A DNA stretch of 32,000 nt, taken from contig AE017199.1 of the NCBI GenBank assembly GCA_000008085.1, positions 360,001-392,000 on the forward strand. The letters are read 5' to 3'. Below the pieces are notes generated by a model. The model searched no databases, was not told where the DNA came from, and was given only the letters and a program-made list of their open reading frames with translations. Both the position numbers and the translations under genes were made by a program. This document shows positions 1,714-24,286 of the stretch, one piece after another; the first letter of the stretch is position 1; every line of letters begins with the position of its first letter. This DNA is from Nanoarchaeum equitans Kin4-M. GTDB lineage: Archaea > Nanobdellota > Nanobdellia > Nanobdellales > Nanoarchaeaceae.

Positions 1714-2396
1714 TTTATTGCTTCTCTTAGATTTTTAACAGGTATTATAGTGAAATTAAATTGTTTAAAATATTGGACCAAATCTATTTGCTTTGGCTCT
1801 AATACCATTGTACAAGTTTTTATCCCTAATATTGTGTGGCACTTCTCTTTATACAAATAAACAGTATAATATCTGTTTTGCCACGGTATTATAAAGCAAT
1901 TGTATTTTTGCATAACTGCTTTGGCTTTTTCTATTATACCCCCAACAGGGTAAACATTACCATAACTATCTACTACTCCTGTGGCAACACAATTTTTTAG
2001 TTTTTTGTCCAATAGCAATGCACTTACCCCTAAAGCTACTGCCAAACCTGCTGAGGGCCCCCCAATTAAAGAAGTATTAGCTTTAACCGATATTGTAAAA
2101 TCATATTTTTTGTTGGATTTTGTTACAAAGTAAGCGGCTTTAACAGCATTATAAAAGCTTTGTTGTGTTGTTGGTTCGGAAAAGGGCTTTATATCTAAAT
2201 ATATATGCCCTTTTCCTGGTTTAGCAGTAATTTGGATTTTAGTTAATACTCCCCCTCCATCAGCAATAGCTACCGCTGGTACTTCAATTAGTTTGCTTTC
2301 GTTTATTTCTATAGATTTATCAAAGGATTTTGCGAAAAAATACCCTAGAAAGAAAAATATAATGGGTAATAAATTCTTTAATGTGTTAAGCTTCAT
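1698..2396 (-). CDS. Membrane-anchored Lon-type (S16) serine protease domain protein without an AAA+ module
   Basis: An N-terminal hydrophobic anchor (LLPIIFFFLGYFFA) is followed by the Lon proteolytic-domain motifs: LIGGPSAGLAVALGV (catalytic Ser in GPSAG) and PVGGIIEKAKA (catalytic Lys in GGxxEK). Confidence 0.65.
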   Translation of the reverse strand: MKLNTLKNLLPIIFFFLGYFFAKSFDKSIEINESKLIEVPAVAIADGGGVLTKIQITAKPGKGHIYLDIKPFSEPTTQQSFYNAVKAAYFVTKSNKKYDFTISVKANTSLIGGPSAGLAVALGVSALLLDKKLKNCVATGVVDSYGNVYPVGGIIEKAKAVMQKYNCFIIPWQNRYYTVYLYKEKCHTILGIKTCTMVLEPKQIDLVQYFKQFNFTIIPVKNLREAINYAIE

Positions 2397-2731
2397 TTTT
2401 CAAACTTCGCTTTGAATTCAAAGCTATCCATGTTCTTTAATAGCTGGGCATATTGCTCTAATATTTTATTTAATTGCCCACTCCTCATTAGTTTTAATAA
2501 CTGTTTTTGTAATTTCTTTTTACATTTTTTATGCATATATAGGGTTGTGCCTAAAACTTCTAAAGTTTCGTAATCATTTTCCCCTACGGGGTTTCCACAT
2601 ATAAAACATATCTTATTGTCGCTAAGTTCTTTTAGTTTTTCCATTGCTTTGTTTAAAGTTTCATCATCTAACCCCATGGCTTTTAGATTGTCTATTTCTT
2701 TTTCCTCTTTCTTTTTCTTAAAGGGCCACAT
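2393..2731 (-). CDS. Hypothetical protein with a CxxC...HxxC putative zinc-binding motif
   Basis: 112-aa ORF with a 4-nt overlap onto the downstream Lon-like gene. It contains CFIC (x21) HKKC and is Lys/Glu-rich. I recognise no family. Confidence 0.5.
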   Translation of the reverse strand: MWPFKKKKEEKEIDNLKAMGLDDETLNKAMEKLKELSDNKICFICGNPVGENDYETLEVLGTTLYMHKKCKKKLQKQLLKLMRSGQLNKILEQYAQLLKNMDSFEFKAKFEK

Positions 2732-2755
2732 ATAAATTAGGTAAACAATAATTTA

Positions 2756-2808
2756 AAATGATGAAGGTGATCCAGCCTGAATTATGATGACGAGAGGGTT
2801 AGCTGATT
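2756..2808 (+). ncRNA. C/D box sRNA (2'-O-methylation guide); D' guide complementary to the SSU rRNA 3' terminus
   Basis: Textbook archaeal architecture. C box AUGAUGA is at 2758-2764, followed by a 12-nt guide AGGUGAUCCAGC and D' box CUGA at 2777-2780. After a 3-nt linker come C' box AUGAUGA at 2784-2790, a 12-nt guide CGAGAGGGUUAG and D box CUGA at 2803-2806. Flanking AA/UU can close the terminal stem. Confidence 0.85.
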
Positions 2809-4320
2809 GGGCAAGTCTTCTATTTTTACTCTAACTTGTTTCATCGTATCTCTATCTCTAATTGTTACGGTATTGTCCTCTAAAGTTTGGTAATCTATTG
2901 TTATTGCATAAGGTACCCCAATTTCGTCTACCCTTCTGTACCTTCTCCCTATAGAGCCTTGTTCATCATAAATTATTGGGTAGAAATAGTTTTTTAGCAT
3001 ATTATATACTTCTTTGGCCTTCTCTATTAGTTCTGGTTTTTTCAATAATGGGAATACTGCCACTTTTATTGGGGCTAGATGTTTTGGTATCTTTAGTACA
3101 ACTCTTTTTTCCTTAACTTTTTGATTATCCCTCTCTATTTCGTACTCTTCTTCAGTTAAGAACAAATCTATTAGAGCTAATACATTCCTATCAACACCAA
3201 AAGATAATTCTAAAACATGGGGGATAAACTTTTTATTGTCTTTTTGCACAGTTAGGTCTTTGCCAGAAACTTTCATATGGCCCGACAAATCATGGTCTGT
3301 TCTATAATGGATACCACCAACTTCTTTCCATCCATAGGTTGGGAAATTTATTTCTATATCAACATGGTATTTATTATAAAATGCTTTTTCTTTTTCGCTT
3401 AACTCTCTAAACCTAAGCCTTTCTTCGGGGATTCCCAATCTTTCATAGAATTGCTTTACTTTCCCTACAAAATAAGCATAAAACTCTGGGAATGGCAAAT
3501 CTTTTACTTTAATTCTTTTGTAATTCCCTTCTTTGTCTAAAAAGTTTAATTCTACATCTTTTACTTCATTTATATCGAATTCATTATCTTCAGGATCAAA
3601 AAATATTTGTAACTCTGCTTGTGTGAACTCTCTCAATCTTAATAATAATTGCCTAGGACTAATTTCATTCCTAAAAGCTTTTCCTACTACTGCTAAACCC
3701 AAAGGAAGCTTTTGTCTATGTAAAATGAATTCTCTTTTAAACATAACATATGGGCCTTGGGCCGTTTCTGGCCTTAAATAAGCTTCATTTTCAACCATTT
3801 TTTTAACTCTTTCGATAATATCTTTTATATATTGTTCGCTCACATTTTCTTTTAGGTTTTTTAATAGGTTCAATGCCTCTTGGGAATCGGGCCCAATATA
3901 AATGGGAAACATCAAATTGAACCATTTTACTTTTCCTAATGGTGCATTACATATAGGGCATCTAACATTTTTTAATAGCTCTTCCATTTCTGATAAAGAC
4001 AGACCTTCCGCTTTTATGTTTAGCTTTTCCTCTATTAGATGGTCTGCTCTAAATCTATGGCCATTTTTACATTCAACAATCGGGTCATTAAAATTCTCTA
4101 AATGCCCACTCGCGATAAACACTTCTTTAGGCATCACTATTGCGGGATCTACTTCCCAAAAGTTAGGATGCAATCTAAGAAAATAGTTTTTCCATTCATT
4201 AATAAAATTGTTTTTTAATAGTGTGCCCAAATAACCATAATCATAAAAACCGGCTATACTATTATAAATTTCGGAAGCCGGGTAAAAAAACCCTTTTAAT
4301 ACATATTCCTTTAGATCCAT
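2782..4320 (-). CDS. glyS: Glycyl-tRNA synthetase (archaeal/eukaryotic class II type)
   Basis: 512 aa. The N-terminus FFYPASEIYNSIAGFYDYGYLGTLLKNN, then YLRPETAQG, GKAFRNEISPR and ELSFGVDR, match GlyRS class II motifs and its anticodon-binding C-terminus. The last 9 codons and the stop are antisense to the C/D sRNA. Confidence 0.9.
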   Translation of the reverse strand: MDLKEYVLKGFFYPASEIYNSIAGFYDYGYLGTLLKNNFINEWKNYFLRLHPNFWEVDPAIVMPKEVFIASGHLENFNDPIVECKNGHRFRADHLIEEKLNIKAEGLSLSEMEELLKNVRCPICNAPLGKVKWFNLMFPIYIGPDSQEALNLLKNLKENVSEQYIKDIIERVKKMVENEAYLRPETAQGPYVMFKREFILHRQKLPLGLAVVGKAFRNEISPRQLLLRLREFTQAELQIFFDPEDNEFDINEVKDVELNFLDKEGNYKRIKVKDLPFPEFYAYFVGKVKQFYERLGIPEERLRFRELSEKEKAFYNKYHVDIEINFPTYGWKEVGGIHYRTDHDLSGHMKVSGKDLTVQKDNKKFIPHVLELSFGVDRNVLALIDLFLTEEEYEIERDNQKVKEKRVVLKIPKHLAPIKVAVFPLLKKPELIEKAKEVYNMLKNYFYPIIYDEQGSIGRRYRRVDEIGVPYAITIDYQTLEDNTVTIRDRDTMKQVRVKIEDLPNQLTLSSS

Positions 4321-11544: not shown

Positions 11545-11896
11545 GAGAGAAATACAATCTTTAATATGGGAAAAGGGTTTTGCTTGCTTAAGGATAGCAG
11601 GCTCTGGCTCCTCTCGATATCCAGCGGCAGATTTAATAGCCAAAATAAAGGACTTATATATTATAGAGGTAAAATATACTCACAAAGATTATGTTTATAT
11701 AAAAGATGAGCAATTAGAGCAAATTGAATTGCTATGCAAAAAATTTGAAGCTAAACCTTTAATAGTGATAAAGTTTTCCCGAAAAGGAATCTATTGTACT
11801 ACGAATTTGCGAAATAAATATACTATAAATGATGGAGATTTAGTTAATTTTAAAGAATGGCTATCTGCAGCGCCTGGTTTCTTCACTAATCAGTAA
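11519..11896 (+). CDS. hjc: Holliday junction resolvase Hjc
   Basis: VEREIQSLIWEKGFACLRIAGSG...ADLIA....YIIEVKYT...VYIKDEQLEQIELLCKKFEAKPLIVIKF matches the Hjc core, including the catalytic E, D and EVK. It overlaps the dphB end by 26 nt. Confidence 0.8.
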   Translation: MKKISSNVEREIQSLIWEKGFACLRIAGSGSSRYPAADLIAKIKDLYIIEVKYTHKDYVYIKDEQLEQIELLCKKFEAKPLIVIKFSRKGIYCTTNLRNKYTINDGDLVNFKEWLSAAPGFFTNQ

Positions 11897-13187
11897 TCGG
11901 CAAACTCTTCATTGCTTTAATTTCTATACCCCTCTTTTTTAAAGCTTTCTTTAAGGTTAAAGCTAAAGTACCCTCTTTACAATAGATGCAATCTCCTTTC
12001 TTAGTTCTAATAAATTTCCAAATAGATATGGGGTTTTCGCAATAATCTAATTCCTCTTCATAACTTTTTATAGGCAAATTAGTTTTCGCTTCTTTTATTA
12101 AGCTATCTATATTTATGTCAATTTTGTCCAACCATTTTTTTATTATCTCTTCTTTAGGTTCTATAACAGTTTTCCTACCTAATGCACACATCTCTTTAAC
12201 TTTAATAACATAATCATATAAGCCCAATTCTCTTATATACTCTATTACTTCTTCTTTGTCTAATCCCGCTATAGGTCTAAATACACTTATGCTATCTAAG
12301 GTTAAGCTATCAATAGTTTCTAAGCTTTTTAGGGTTTGAGTACTTTTTTGCCCAATAGATTCCCCAATAAAGATAGATTTTAAACCTAATTTTTTTGCCA
12401 AAGCTTTAGCAGTCTTATGCATTATTATCTTAAGTAAGATTTGCCTGTATTTTTCTTCCACATTCATTAATAATTGGTAATAAACTTCGCTAAATGGTAT
12501 AGAAATAAAAATCGAATCTGGGGAGAATTCTTTTATTTTTTCATAAACTTCATATACAGTTTTTTCTATAAAATCGTCGAAAGGGTTAAAATAAACTATT
12601 ATTGGTATAACCCCCCTTTTGATAGCAAATATAGCTGTTAAAGTGGAATCAAACCCCCCAGAAAATAAAGACAAAGCTTTGCCTTCACTACCATAGGGCA
12701 AACCTCCTAGACCTTTTTCTTCCGAATAATAAATATAAACTTTATCTCTTATGTTTATTCTTATTATATTGTCAGGATTTTTTAGATTAACTTTTTTATC
12801 ACTATTTTTTTCTATATAAGAACCGACAATTTTGGCTATCTCTAAACTATTGTAAGGAAAATTCTTATCTGCTCTAATAACTTTTATTTTGAAAGTTTTT
12901 CTTGGTAGCCTTTTAGCCAATTCCAAAGCATATTTTTTTATTGATTCTAAATCTTTTTCTACTTCTAATGCAGGGTATATTTTATTTATTCCAGGAACGA
13001 GCTTTAGTTTTCTTATTATTTCTCCTACATCTCCTTTGAATATAAATAAACCCCTATCTATTTTTAACACATCGTAGGGAACTTTCCTTTTTATATCTTT
13101 AATTAATAGTTTAAGCAAACCTTTTTTGCTTCTTTCCCCTTTTAAGAATATTTCTCCCCAACTAGCTAGTACAGCATTATAGAACAT
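11886..13187 (-). CDS. thiI: tRNA 4-thiouridine synthase ThiI (THUMP + PP-loop ATPase)
   Basis: The N-terminus ...WGEIFLKGERSKK is a ThiI/THUMP-type start. A PP-loop SLFSGGFDST is present. 433 aa. Confidence 0.8.
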   Translation of the reverse strand: MFYNAVLASWGEIFLKGERSKKGLLKLLIKDIKRKVPYDVLKIDRGLFIFKGDVGEIIRKLKLVPGINKIYPALEVEKDLESIKKYALELAKRLPRKTFKIKVIRADKNFPYNSLEIAKIVGSYIEKNSDKKVNLKNPDNIIRINIRDKVYIYYSEEKGLGGLPYGSEGKALSLFSGGFDSTLTAIFAIKRGVIPIIVYFNPFDDFIEKTVYEVYEKIKEFSPDSIFISIPFSEVYYQLLMNVEEKYRQILLKIIMHKTAKALAKKLGLKSIFIGESIGQKSTQTLKSLETIDSLTLDSISVFRPIAGLDKEEVIEYIRELGLYDYVIKVKEMCALGRKTVIEPKEEIIKKWLDKIDINIDSLIKEAKTNLPIKSYEEELDYCENPISIWKFIRTKKGDCIYCKEGTLALTLKKALKKRGIEIKAMKSLPITD

Positions 13188-15350: not shown

Positions 15351-15403
15351 TTTCAGTTTGTAACTCTCTCGTCATTACTCAGCACGCCAAGAATTCATCA
15401 CTC
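15351..15403 (-). ncRNA. C/D box sRNA immediately 3' of radA, sharing its stop codon
   Basis: On the minus strand, C box GUGAUGA is at 15401-15395, followed by a 12-nt guide AUUCUUGGCGUG and D' box CUGA. After a 3-nt linker come C' box AUGACGA, a 12-nt guide GAGAGUUACAAA and D box CUGA at 15356-15353. The first UGA of the C box is the radA stop codon (15400-15398). Confidence 0.82.
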
Positions 15404-16354
15404 TGGGTCTCTTATACCTTCTTCAGTAATAACGAATGTTGTTTCTCTCTCTGGTAAGTGGGGCGAATCTACTAATCTGGCAATTCTTATACCTTTTTTA
15501 CCCTTTCTTAAGAATACTCTATAGGTTGATGCATGTGCTAATACATGCCCTCCAACGGCTTGTACTGAATCTAGGCCTGGAATAAAAGAATCTGGTTTAG
15601 CCATTACTTGGTTTGTTACATATATTGCCACATTATATAATTCGGCTATCCTTAATAAATCATGTACATGCCTTCCTAATTTGTGTTGCCTTTCTGCTAG
15701 CTGTCCTCTTCCTGTATATTCAGCTCTAAACAAAGCTGTTAAAGAATCTACTACAATTAATTTTATTGGTTCTCCTTTTCTTATTAGCTCTTCTGCTTTT
15801 CTCGCAGCAAGCATTTGGTGGTCTGTGTTAAATACTTTCATATGATACACATTTTTTAAAGCTTTCTTTGGATCTAAATCTAATGCTTCGGCCATCTGTT
15901 TTATTCTTTCTGGCCTAAATGTACCTTCTGTATCTATATATACGGCTTTCCCTTCTAATCCTCCTTGTTCTGGGGGTAATTGCACATCAACGGCTAATTG
16001 GTGGCCTACTTGTGTTTTACCAGAACCATATTCTCCATAAAACTCTGTTAATGCTGCGGTTTCTATACCTCCCCCCAATAGGGAATCTAAGTTTTTGGAC
16101 ATAGTCGTTATTCTAGCAGTTTTTTGCCTTTCCTCTAATACCTCTTCTGCTGTTTTAAATTCCAATAATCCTAATCTCTCCATCGCAGCTTCAATAATTT
16201 TTCTGGCTGTAGCTTCCCCAATATCTGCAGCTTCCATTAGTTCTTCTACACTCGCGGAAGCAATTTTTATTAATGAATCGTAACCAGCACTAATTAGTTT
16301 TTCAGCAGTTTTTGGGCCTACCCCAGGTAAAGATCTAATATCATCCTTAGACAT
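15398..16354 (-). CDS. radA: DNA repair and recombination protein RadA
   Basis: The N-terminal HhH motif ([17 protein letters not shown]), Walker [10 protein letters not shown], and [13 protein letters not shown] are present. I place the start at the ATG at 16354 ([13 protein letters not shown]). The ORF-track extension to 16375 begins with TTG and adds 7 non-conserved residues. Confidence 0.93.
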
Positions 16355-22455: not shown

Positions 22456-22508
22456 CTATGAAGAAAGCCGCTACTCTGAATTTATGATGAAGAGCCTGGA
22501 TGCAGATC
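22456..22508 (+). ncRNA. C/D box sRNA with a variant C (AUGAAGA) and D (CAGA) pair, overlapping the 3' end of the reverse gyrase helicase-half gene
   Basis: C box AUGAAGA is at 22458-22464, followed by an 11-nt guide AAGCCGCUACU and D' box CUGA at 22476-22479. After a 4-nt linker come C' box AUGAUGA at 22484-22490, a 12-nt guide AGAGCCUGGAUG and D box CAGA at 22503-22506. The two deviations fall on the two nucleotides that face each other in the k-turn (U-U becomes A-A). Confidence 0.65.
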
Positions 22509-24209
22509 TATTCCTAATAGTTTAAGCTTAAACTCTAATGCTCTCAATAGTTTTTCATTATCGCTTAGAATTATAGATAAACCTTTAGTAATCCCTCCCG
22601 GATACATACGAGATGTTCTACCAGAGGCTTGTATGTAGGTTTTAACATCTGGTATTAGAATGTTAATACCATCTCCTCTCTCTAAAGCAATAAAGGGATT
22701 TTCTTCCAATTTTTTAATTATGTCTTCCCTATTAATTAATTCGAAAGATTTGTCCCTTAGATAAATAATATTTTTCCTTAACTCTTCTAAAAAGCCATCC
22801 AACTCTTTGTTTTGTTCTATAGCTTCTTCAACCATCTTTAGTGCACCAGTAGAAACCCTTTTTATCATATTATAGGTAGTATTTAATTTTTTCTTAAACT
22901 CTTCATCAGCGTAGTCAGATAATGTTGATGCTAATAACAATATTCTTCCTATTTTTGTTTCTTTCTCTTTTGCGCTAAACCTAAACCTTGGGATGCCAAC
23001 AAATATGGCATATTTAACTACATGGGGCAAATCTATACCTCTAACGATTAACCCATAATAATGAGCTACCCCTACTAATACATCTAATTCTTTGTTGGCA
23101 TATTTGTCTAATAATTCTATAGATTTACCTGAGTAAAATGCTTCTGCTTTTATGTTGTTTTCTTTTAAATATTGGGCTATTTCTTCTGCTTTTTCAATAC
23201 CATAATCTGTTGGTACAAAAACCAAACCACCGTTTCCCAATTTTTTAATTAATTCTAAAGTTTGTTTTTTATAGTCTCTCATCTCTGTATAAACATCAAT
23301 TATGTTTCTTATTGTTGTTTTAGCAGCTCCAACTTCGAAACCTAATAGTTCTCTAAATAGTTTTACCCTTAGCCCTCTCATAGAACCAGTTGCAGATGCC
23401 GCTATTAATATACCTCTTTGTTCTTTTCTAACTAATTCCTTTAATTGTTCTTCCATTTTTCTTATTTTTTCTAAGTCTTTTCCTGAAATTTTTAGCTTTA
23501 TTAATTGCATCGCTTTTTCTATTGTAGTTTCACTAAATCCTAATAGATATAAAATGCGATCGATATTTTTACTGCTTTTCATTATAGAATCTACATCATC
23601 GGCAAAAATTATATCGAAATAATTGTTTTTTAGCAAATCAAAATTCCTGCTTAAGAATTGGTTCGATGTTATTAGTATAGAAAATGCCCCATCTTTGATT
23701 AGCTCTTTTGCTTCTTTCTTTTGCTTGTTATTTCCATAGTATGCCACAATAATATTATCAAACCCAACCCTCTCGGCAAAAACATTTATCTTTTCATATA
23801 ATTGTTTAACCAAAGTTCTAGTTGGCACTATAATATATACCTTTTTACCTTTTTTACCCCAATATAGGGCATTTACTAAAGCGAAAGTGGTTTTTCCCAT
23901 TCCAGTAGGGGCTATTATAGAAAAAGAATATCCCTTATAAGCTCTAATGAACCATGCTCTTTGTGCAGACCAAGGTTTATTGTTTACAGCTTTGTAAAAG
24001 AATTCTTCAAATTCTTTTTTGGCTTTTTCTATGTTATAAATATTGGCCCAATCTTTTAGTTTATTGTTTTCCTTTAGATATTCGTAAACTTGTTCAATTG
24101 TGCCTTCCTCATAAGGGTAATCGTTTTCACATGGCAAACCCTTAATTAATCTTTCATTAGATATTCTCCCAGAACAATTGGGGCAAACATTATTATAATA
24201 GATTTTCAT
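22482..24209 (-). CDS. rgy: Reverse gyrase, helicase-like N-terminal half only (split gene)
   Basis: The N-terminal zinc finger CPNCSGR is present. PWSAQRAWFIRAYKGYSFSIIAPTGMGKTTF (Walker A), FADDVDS (DDVD box) and IQASGRTSR (motif VI) are co-linear with the first ~550 aa of full-length reverse gyrases. The ORF stops after 575 aa, and no Toprim/topoisomerase IA domain follows in any frame. Confidence 0.9.
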   Translation of the reverse strand: MKIYYNNVCPNCSGRISNERLIKGLPCENDYPYEEGTIEQVYEYLKENNKLKDWANIYNIEKAKKEFEEFFYKAVNNKPWSAQRAWFIRAYKGYSFSIIAPTGMGKTTFALVNALYWGKKGKKVYIIVPTRTLVKQLYEKINVFAERVGFDNIIVAYYGNNKQKKEAKELIKDGAFSILITSNQFLSRNFDLLKNNYFDIIFADDVDSIMKSSKNIDRILYLLGFSETTIEKAMQLIKLKISGKDLEKIRKMEEQLKELVRKEQRGILIAASATGSMRGLRVKLFRELLGFEVGAAKTTIRNIIDVYTEMRDYKKQTLELIKKLGNGGLVFVPTDYGIEKAEEIAQYLKENNIKAEAFYSGKSIELLDKYANKELDVLVGVAHYYGLIVRGIDLPHVVKYAIFVGIPRFRFSAKEKETKIGRILLLASTLSDYADEEFKKKLNTTYNMIKRVSTGALKMVEEAIEQNKELDGFLEELRKNIIYLRDKSFELINREDIIKKLEENPFIALERGDGINILIPDVKTYIQASGRTSRMYPGGITKGLSIILSDNEKLLRALEFKLKLLGIDLHPGSSS

Positions 24210-24235
24210 TTAACAATAACTGAGAGCAATATTAA

Positions 24236-24286
24236 AAATGCTGAACATCGGGTATACTGAATAGTGATGATTAGCTGTAAAGTTCT
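24236..24286 (+). ncRNA. Degenerate C/D box-like element (possible decayed or half-functional sRNA)
   Basis: It has the same 7-12-4-3-7-12-4 spacing as the 2756 sRNA. AUGCUGA is at 24238-24244, followed by a 12-nt ACAUCGGGUAUA and CUGA at 24257-24260. After AUA comes GUGAUGA at 24264-24270 and 12 nt UUAGCUGUAAAG, but then UUCU where a D box should be. The internal C'/D' pair is perfect, while the terminal C/D pair is defective. Confidence 0.3.

Follow-up and report, generated by a model that had tools for sequence, protein, structure and literature searches.

Neq sR20, encoded in the stretch of Nanoarchaeum equitans DNA analysed here, is almost certainly a double-guide archaeal C/D box sRNA whose D' guide directs Gm1530 in 16S rRNA and whose D guide directs Cm1920 in helix 69 of 23S rRNA. 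The stretch (the window; 32,000 nucleotides, positions 360,001-392,000) belongs to a genome of one contig, with 490,885 bp and 31.6% G+C. sR20 is already known down to its modified nucleotides. Randau 2012 (PMC3491384, Additional file 2) lists it as sRNA20 at 362755-362808, with an RNA-seq coverage of 5,300 and in the context NEQ416<-sRNA20->NEQ417<-, and Dennis et al. 2015 (PMC4644070, Additional file 1) as NeqsR20, with identical sequence and coordinates; neither gives a target prediction for it. Since the sRNA, the evidence that it is expressed and its two methylation sites have all been published, the novelty implied by the earlier note is unsupported. Its reading of the locus as a C/D box sRNA is borne out by four consensus boxes and by the sequenced transcript (coverage 5,300 at 362755-362808; PMC3491384), the RNA of about 50 nt that it had called for; the start it placed at 2756 moves to the published 5' end at 2755. 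The features are as follows, in window coordinates.

2755..2808 (genome 362755-362808), + strand: C/D box sRNA Neq sR20, 54 nt, identical to the published sequence and coordinates
2758..2764, + strand: box C, ATGATGA in the sequence, consensus RUGAUGA
2765..2776, + strand: D' guide AGGTGATCCAGC, 12 nt, facing 16S nt 1526-1537 (E. coli numbering)
2777..2780, + strand: box D', CTGA in the sequence
Between box D' and box C', + strand: spacer ATT in the sequence, 3 nt
2784..2790, + strand: box C', ATGATGA in the sequence; on the opposite strand, two Ser codons and the stop of glyS
2791..2802, + strand: D guide CGAGAGGGTTAG, 12 nt, facing 23S helix 69, N+5 base C1920 (genome 396014)
2803..2806, + strand: box D, CTGA in the sequence
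2782..4320, - strand: glyS (NEQ417, glycine-tRNA ligase, 512 aa), an open reading frame matching NCBIfam PRK04173 with 515.8 bits (cut-off 312)
2393..2731, - strand: NEQ416, 112 aa, no NCBIfam family; its start lies 24 nt upstream of sR20
11860-11917, - strand: sR21, published, recovered by the four-box pattern
15354-15406, - strand: sR22, published, recovered by the four-box pattern
22458-22509, + strand: sR23, published, recovered by the four-box pattern
24218-24278, + strand: sR24, a published, permuted C/D sRNA

All four boxes of sR20 agree with the C/D consensus, with box C near the 5' end and box D near the 3' end. A strict four-box pattern is found at 18 sites in the genome, all of them inside published sRNAs, versus none in 15 order-3 Markov genomes that preserve its 4-mer statistics. 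At gathering thresholds, an Rfam scan of the window reached no family; the best match of sR20, snoPyro_CD (RF00095), scores 37 bits, below the 45 bits required for membership. The genes for the box proteins are present, with all matches above their cut-offs (fibrillarin, PF01269, E 1e-95; Nop, PF01798, 5e-63; L7Ae, PF01248, 1e-34). A scan of the locus for promoters and terminators found nothing; its model is bacterial and the host is an archaeon. A TATAAA motif at 2731-2736 lies 19-24 nt upstream of sR20 and overlaps the start of NEQ416. Its distance from the RNA is shorter than usual for archaea, and we claim no promoter here.

The D' guide forms 12 of 12 pairs with the N. equitans 16S rRNA, as the earlier note had predicted from the conserved 3' end; the organism's own sequence leaves the duplex undisturbed. 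The exact reverse complement of the guide occurs once in the genome, at 433811-433822, within the 16S gene (432326-433825). A perfect 12-mer match in 16S plus 23S rRNA is expected by chance 2.7e-4 times, and none of 300 shuffled D' guides reaches such a match. The N+5 base, held in a C-G Watson-Crick pair, is G1490 of the N. equitans 16S rRNA, which aligns to E. coli G1530 and so confirms the approximate number given before. G1530 adjoins helix 45, just 5' of the anti-Shine-Dalgarno sequence. Among 26 published sRNAs sR20 alone fits this site, the runner-up guide reaching a run of 4 bp. In line with the prediction, MALDI-MS by Seistrup et al. (PMC5389701) detected (Um)G(Gm)AUp at 16S 1528-1532; they confirmed Gm1530 by RiboMeth-seq, the check that had been proposed for the 16S 3' end, and assigned its guidance to sR20. 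sR20 is thus a good positive control, in which a measured modification is predicted to the nucleotide from sequence alone.

The D guide, which the earlier note had left without a target, is assigned to C1920 when both guides are aligned to rRNA and tRNA. We scanned both rRNAs and 38 tRNA predictions with G-U pairs permitted; the longest duplex comprises 10 bp (8 Watson-Crick, 2 G-U) with 23S rRNA at C2037. This nucleotide lies in helix 69 and aligns to C1921 of E. coli rrlA (2,905 nt); in rrlB, which sets the standard numbering, its equivalent is C1920. The N+5 pair is a Watson-Crick G-C, and one of the G-U pairs adjoins the target base. Taken alone the duplex is not significant, as 43 of 300 shuffled guides equal it somewhere in rRNA. 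The sR20 D guide is the sole fit to C1920 among the 26 published sRNAs (runner-up 6 bp), and the five further genomic 12-mers that fit the site have neither a CUGA box D nor a box C upstream. An 11-nt match of the D guide at genome position 254,893 was rejected: it falls in a protein-coding frame, which we take to be MCM-like, with the guide in the same sense as the mRNA. In Methanococcus and Sulfolobus, sR104 and sR20, respectively, are likewise predicted to target the C1920 equivalent, alignment position C2186, given A1912 at alignment position 2178. According to Seistrup et al. (PMC5389701), both methods also confirmed Cm1920 in helix 69 ("data not shown"), a mark that they assign to sR20. 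Since the prime marks are missing from the consulted text of PMC5389701, the pairing of D' with G1530 and of D with C1920 is our own calculation.

In archaeal C/D particles, L7Ae settles on the box motifs, Nop5 and fibrillarin follow, and the ribose opposite guide position 5 is methylated. By analogy, L7Ae would bind the C/D and C'/D' boxes of sR20 and be joined by Nop5 and fibrillarin; each guide would then pair with rRNA, and fibrillarin would methylate the 2'-OH of the rRNA base opposite guide position 5, counted upstream from box D or D'. The D' guide would in this way direct Gm1530 in 16S rRNA, and the D guide Cm1920 in 23S helix 69. The transcript, both duplexes, Gm1530 seen by two methods and Cm1920, stated with data not shown, are the observed parts of this scheme; complementarity points to sR20 itself as the cause of the two marks, and the two guides probably act independently on the two nascent rRNAs.

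The D guide could have a second or a different real target, and the best candidate is C39 of tRNA-Ser(CGA). There it would form 9 bp, 8 of them consecutive Watson-Crick pairs, at -16.6 kcal/mol compared with -12.4 for the 23S duplex; both guide bases that form G-U pairs with 23S rRNA have proper partners in the tRNA, and in archaeal tRNA-Trp position 39 is known to be methylated under C/D guidance (PMC7994747). However, the match is not above chance, since a tRNA site as good as this one turns up for 66 of 1000 shuffled guides; guide positions 1-2 are mismatched and position 3 forms a wobble pair; the target strand is base-paired within the anticodon stem; and among the tRNA-targeting sRNAs of Pyrobaculum dual guides are uncommon (PMC7994747; Lui et al.). 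Cm1920 needs a guide and no other guide fits, which weighs against a tRNA as a different target, and we consider this reading quite improbable. The glyS mRNA offers itself as another partner, because the last 8 codons of glyS (NQLTLSSS) and its TAA stop are antisense to sR20 over 27 nt; the convergent overlap with the last 9 codons described earlier holds if the stop is counted. The overlap includes the whole D guide and is perfectly antisense, and Lui et al. raised mRNA action as a possibility for antisense overlaps in general. sR20 might then regulate the mRNA or methylate it at the second base of the Thr508 codon (N+5, window 2798). Yet the complementarity is an automatic consequence of the overlap, archaeal C/D sRNAs commonly overlap the 3' ends of open reading frames (Lui et al.), and both guides already have rRNA sites reported as methylated (PMC5389701), which makes an action on glyS very improbable. 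An artefact is next to impossible. Thirteen bases, the D' guide and the C of box D', are indeed antisense to the conserved 16S end that universal primers also use, and might suggest that a primer or a fragment of antisense 16S DNA had entered the assembly; but the match ends at the boxes on either side, glyS runs through the stretch as an unbroken reading frame, the genome is a single contig, and the transcription of sR20 (PMC3491384) together with the predicted methylation (PMC5389701) has already refuted it.

A further reading adds to methylation and does not replace it: sR20 might also act as an assembly chaperone or checkpoint, a possibility raised by Seistrup et al. (PMC5389701). It would mask 16S nt 1526-1537, with some of the anti-Shine-Dalgarno sequence among them, and might tie the helix 45 region to helix 69 across the interface between the subunits. 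G1530 and C1920 belong to different subunits, yet they are close in the 70S ribosome, where the 16S G1530 region and helix 69 approach each other across the interface (Seistrup et al., PMC5389701). N. equitans contains no full-length match to RsmA (its PF00398 matches span only profile positions 22-75 of 263), its 16S A1518/A1519 are unmethylated (PMC5389701), and in a related genome, G401, described below, a G1530-type guide is partnered with a guide whose fit lies at the base of helix 44, around nt 1396. Against this, guide pairing requires single-stranded targets, which would be unlikely once the subunits have joined, the 16S and 23S genes lie ~38 kb apart, and a C1920-type guide was not found in 20 genomes of N. 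equitans' order; we regard the additional role as unlikely. A broader version, in which sR20 is multi-target (tRNA-Ser(CGA) C39 or glyS mRNA) or physically links the 16S 3' end to helix 69 while the subunits mature in a lineage that lacks RsmA, strikes us as distinctly unlikely. Were it multi-target, the two departures from pairing on 23S rRNA might be kept because the D guide also methylates C39 or the glyS mRNA. Seistrup et al. (PMC5389701) pose the wider question of whether nanoarchaea, in which the RsmA/Dim1 checkpoint is missing, make up for it with sRNAs that bind the 16S 3' end. In all 21 genomes of the order that were searched, matches to the RsmA family (PF00398) extend at most over profile positions 6-108 of 263. 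The lack of a full-length RsmA in these genomes fits the published loss of RsmA in nanoarchaea.

As to glyS itself, the best stretch of the PRK04173 match ends at GlyS residue 505 of 512, and the residues that overlap the sRNA lie beyond it. At 2782-2790 the sequence TTATGATGA (spacer and box C') reads Ser-Ser-stop on the opposite strand. glyS and the gene antisense to sR23 (22458-22509) both end in Ser-Ser-Ser-stop because TTATGATGA has this reading. The stretches retrieved from relatives for a comparison of the glyS 3' end did not include the GlyRS C-terminus.

A pattern of box C, G1530 guide and CUGA, which requires a consensus box just upstream and from which degenerate cases escape, is confined to N. 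equitans among 400 genomes of the phylum. Its 90 matches in 185,579 species genomes were treated as chance, as a second C/D half is missing from every one of them; among the matches listed (80 of the 90), all are bacterial except one in a Nitrososphaerales MAG. An orthologue of sR20 with both guides was not found in the relatives searched, nor was a C1920-type guide in the 20 other genomes of the order. A looser search of the order recovered one real case, a complete C/D sRNA in genome G401 (L112:1468-1515; G401:C3), which is 89% complete and belongs to the same order and a different family. Here the G1530-type guide sits at box D and the D' guide is different, and a convergent gene overlaps the sRNA with its 3' end. 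G401 is without assembled rRNA, and its guides were matched against the rRNAs of other genomes only: on N. equitans 16S rRNA the box D guide forms 10 bp (9 Watson-Crick) at the G1530 site; the D' guide forms 8 bp in the vicinity of nt 1396, and an alternative site elsewhere suits it just as well. Judged by this match, the box D guide probably targets a G1530-type site, a small new pointer that the site is guided beyond N. equitans. In three genomes of the larger sister family (G415, G247 and G315; L118, L119, L120), the 16S rRNA continues after helix 45 with GCUGGAUCUAGUU and is without the CACCUCC anti-Shine-Dalgarno tract. An sR20-type guide could therefore not pair fully there, and this 16S end may explain why no such guide was found in that family.

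Two other sRNAs of N. equitans have D or D' guides with tRNA matches. The D guide of sR19 (genome 359412-359470) forms 12 bp with tRNA-Leu(TAA/GAG), and the D' guide of sR7 (genome 145962-146019) can pair with tRNA-Gly and tRNA-Val around position 10 over as many as 11 bp; Dennis 2015 (PMC4644070) gives no rRNA target for either guide. The sR22 D guide is directed at U1917 in 23S helix 69, 3 nt from the sR20 target, and its D' guide is unrelated. When up to 2 mismatches are allowed, the 15-mer ATGACGAGAGGGTTA in the 3' half of sR20 (2787-2801) matches a single further place in the genome, sR22 (14 of 15). Guide duplication with a shift is a possible explanation, and the likeness mostly follows from the shared target and box.

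Compared with known systems, the locus is identical to the published Neq sR20 (PMC3491384, PMC4644070, PMC5389701) in coordinates, sequence, flanking genes and both targets. It resembles archaeal C/D sRNAs (snoPyro_CD and the Pyrococcus sR families) in its length of 54 nt, its C, D', C' and D boxes and its two 12-nt guides, and it likewise follows the N+5 rule and overlaps the 3' end of a gene. It scores below every Rfam gathering threshold (best 37 versus 45 bits) and so falls under no named family, and it has only the name in common with Rfam "sR20" (RF01140; 13.9 bits). The targets of sR20 lie in two subunits, whereas the rRNA-targeting sRNAs of Pyrobaculum mostly have both targets less than 100 nt apart (237 of 327; Lui et al.). 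A counterpart at the 16S 3' end is Neq sR13 of the same genome, which guides 16S Am1408 and Am1534 with a duplex that overlaps that of sR20; sR13 has both targets in 16S rRNA and was proposed as a substitute for RsmA in a study that treats sR20 as a side note (PMC5389701).
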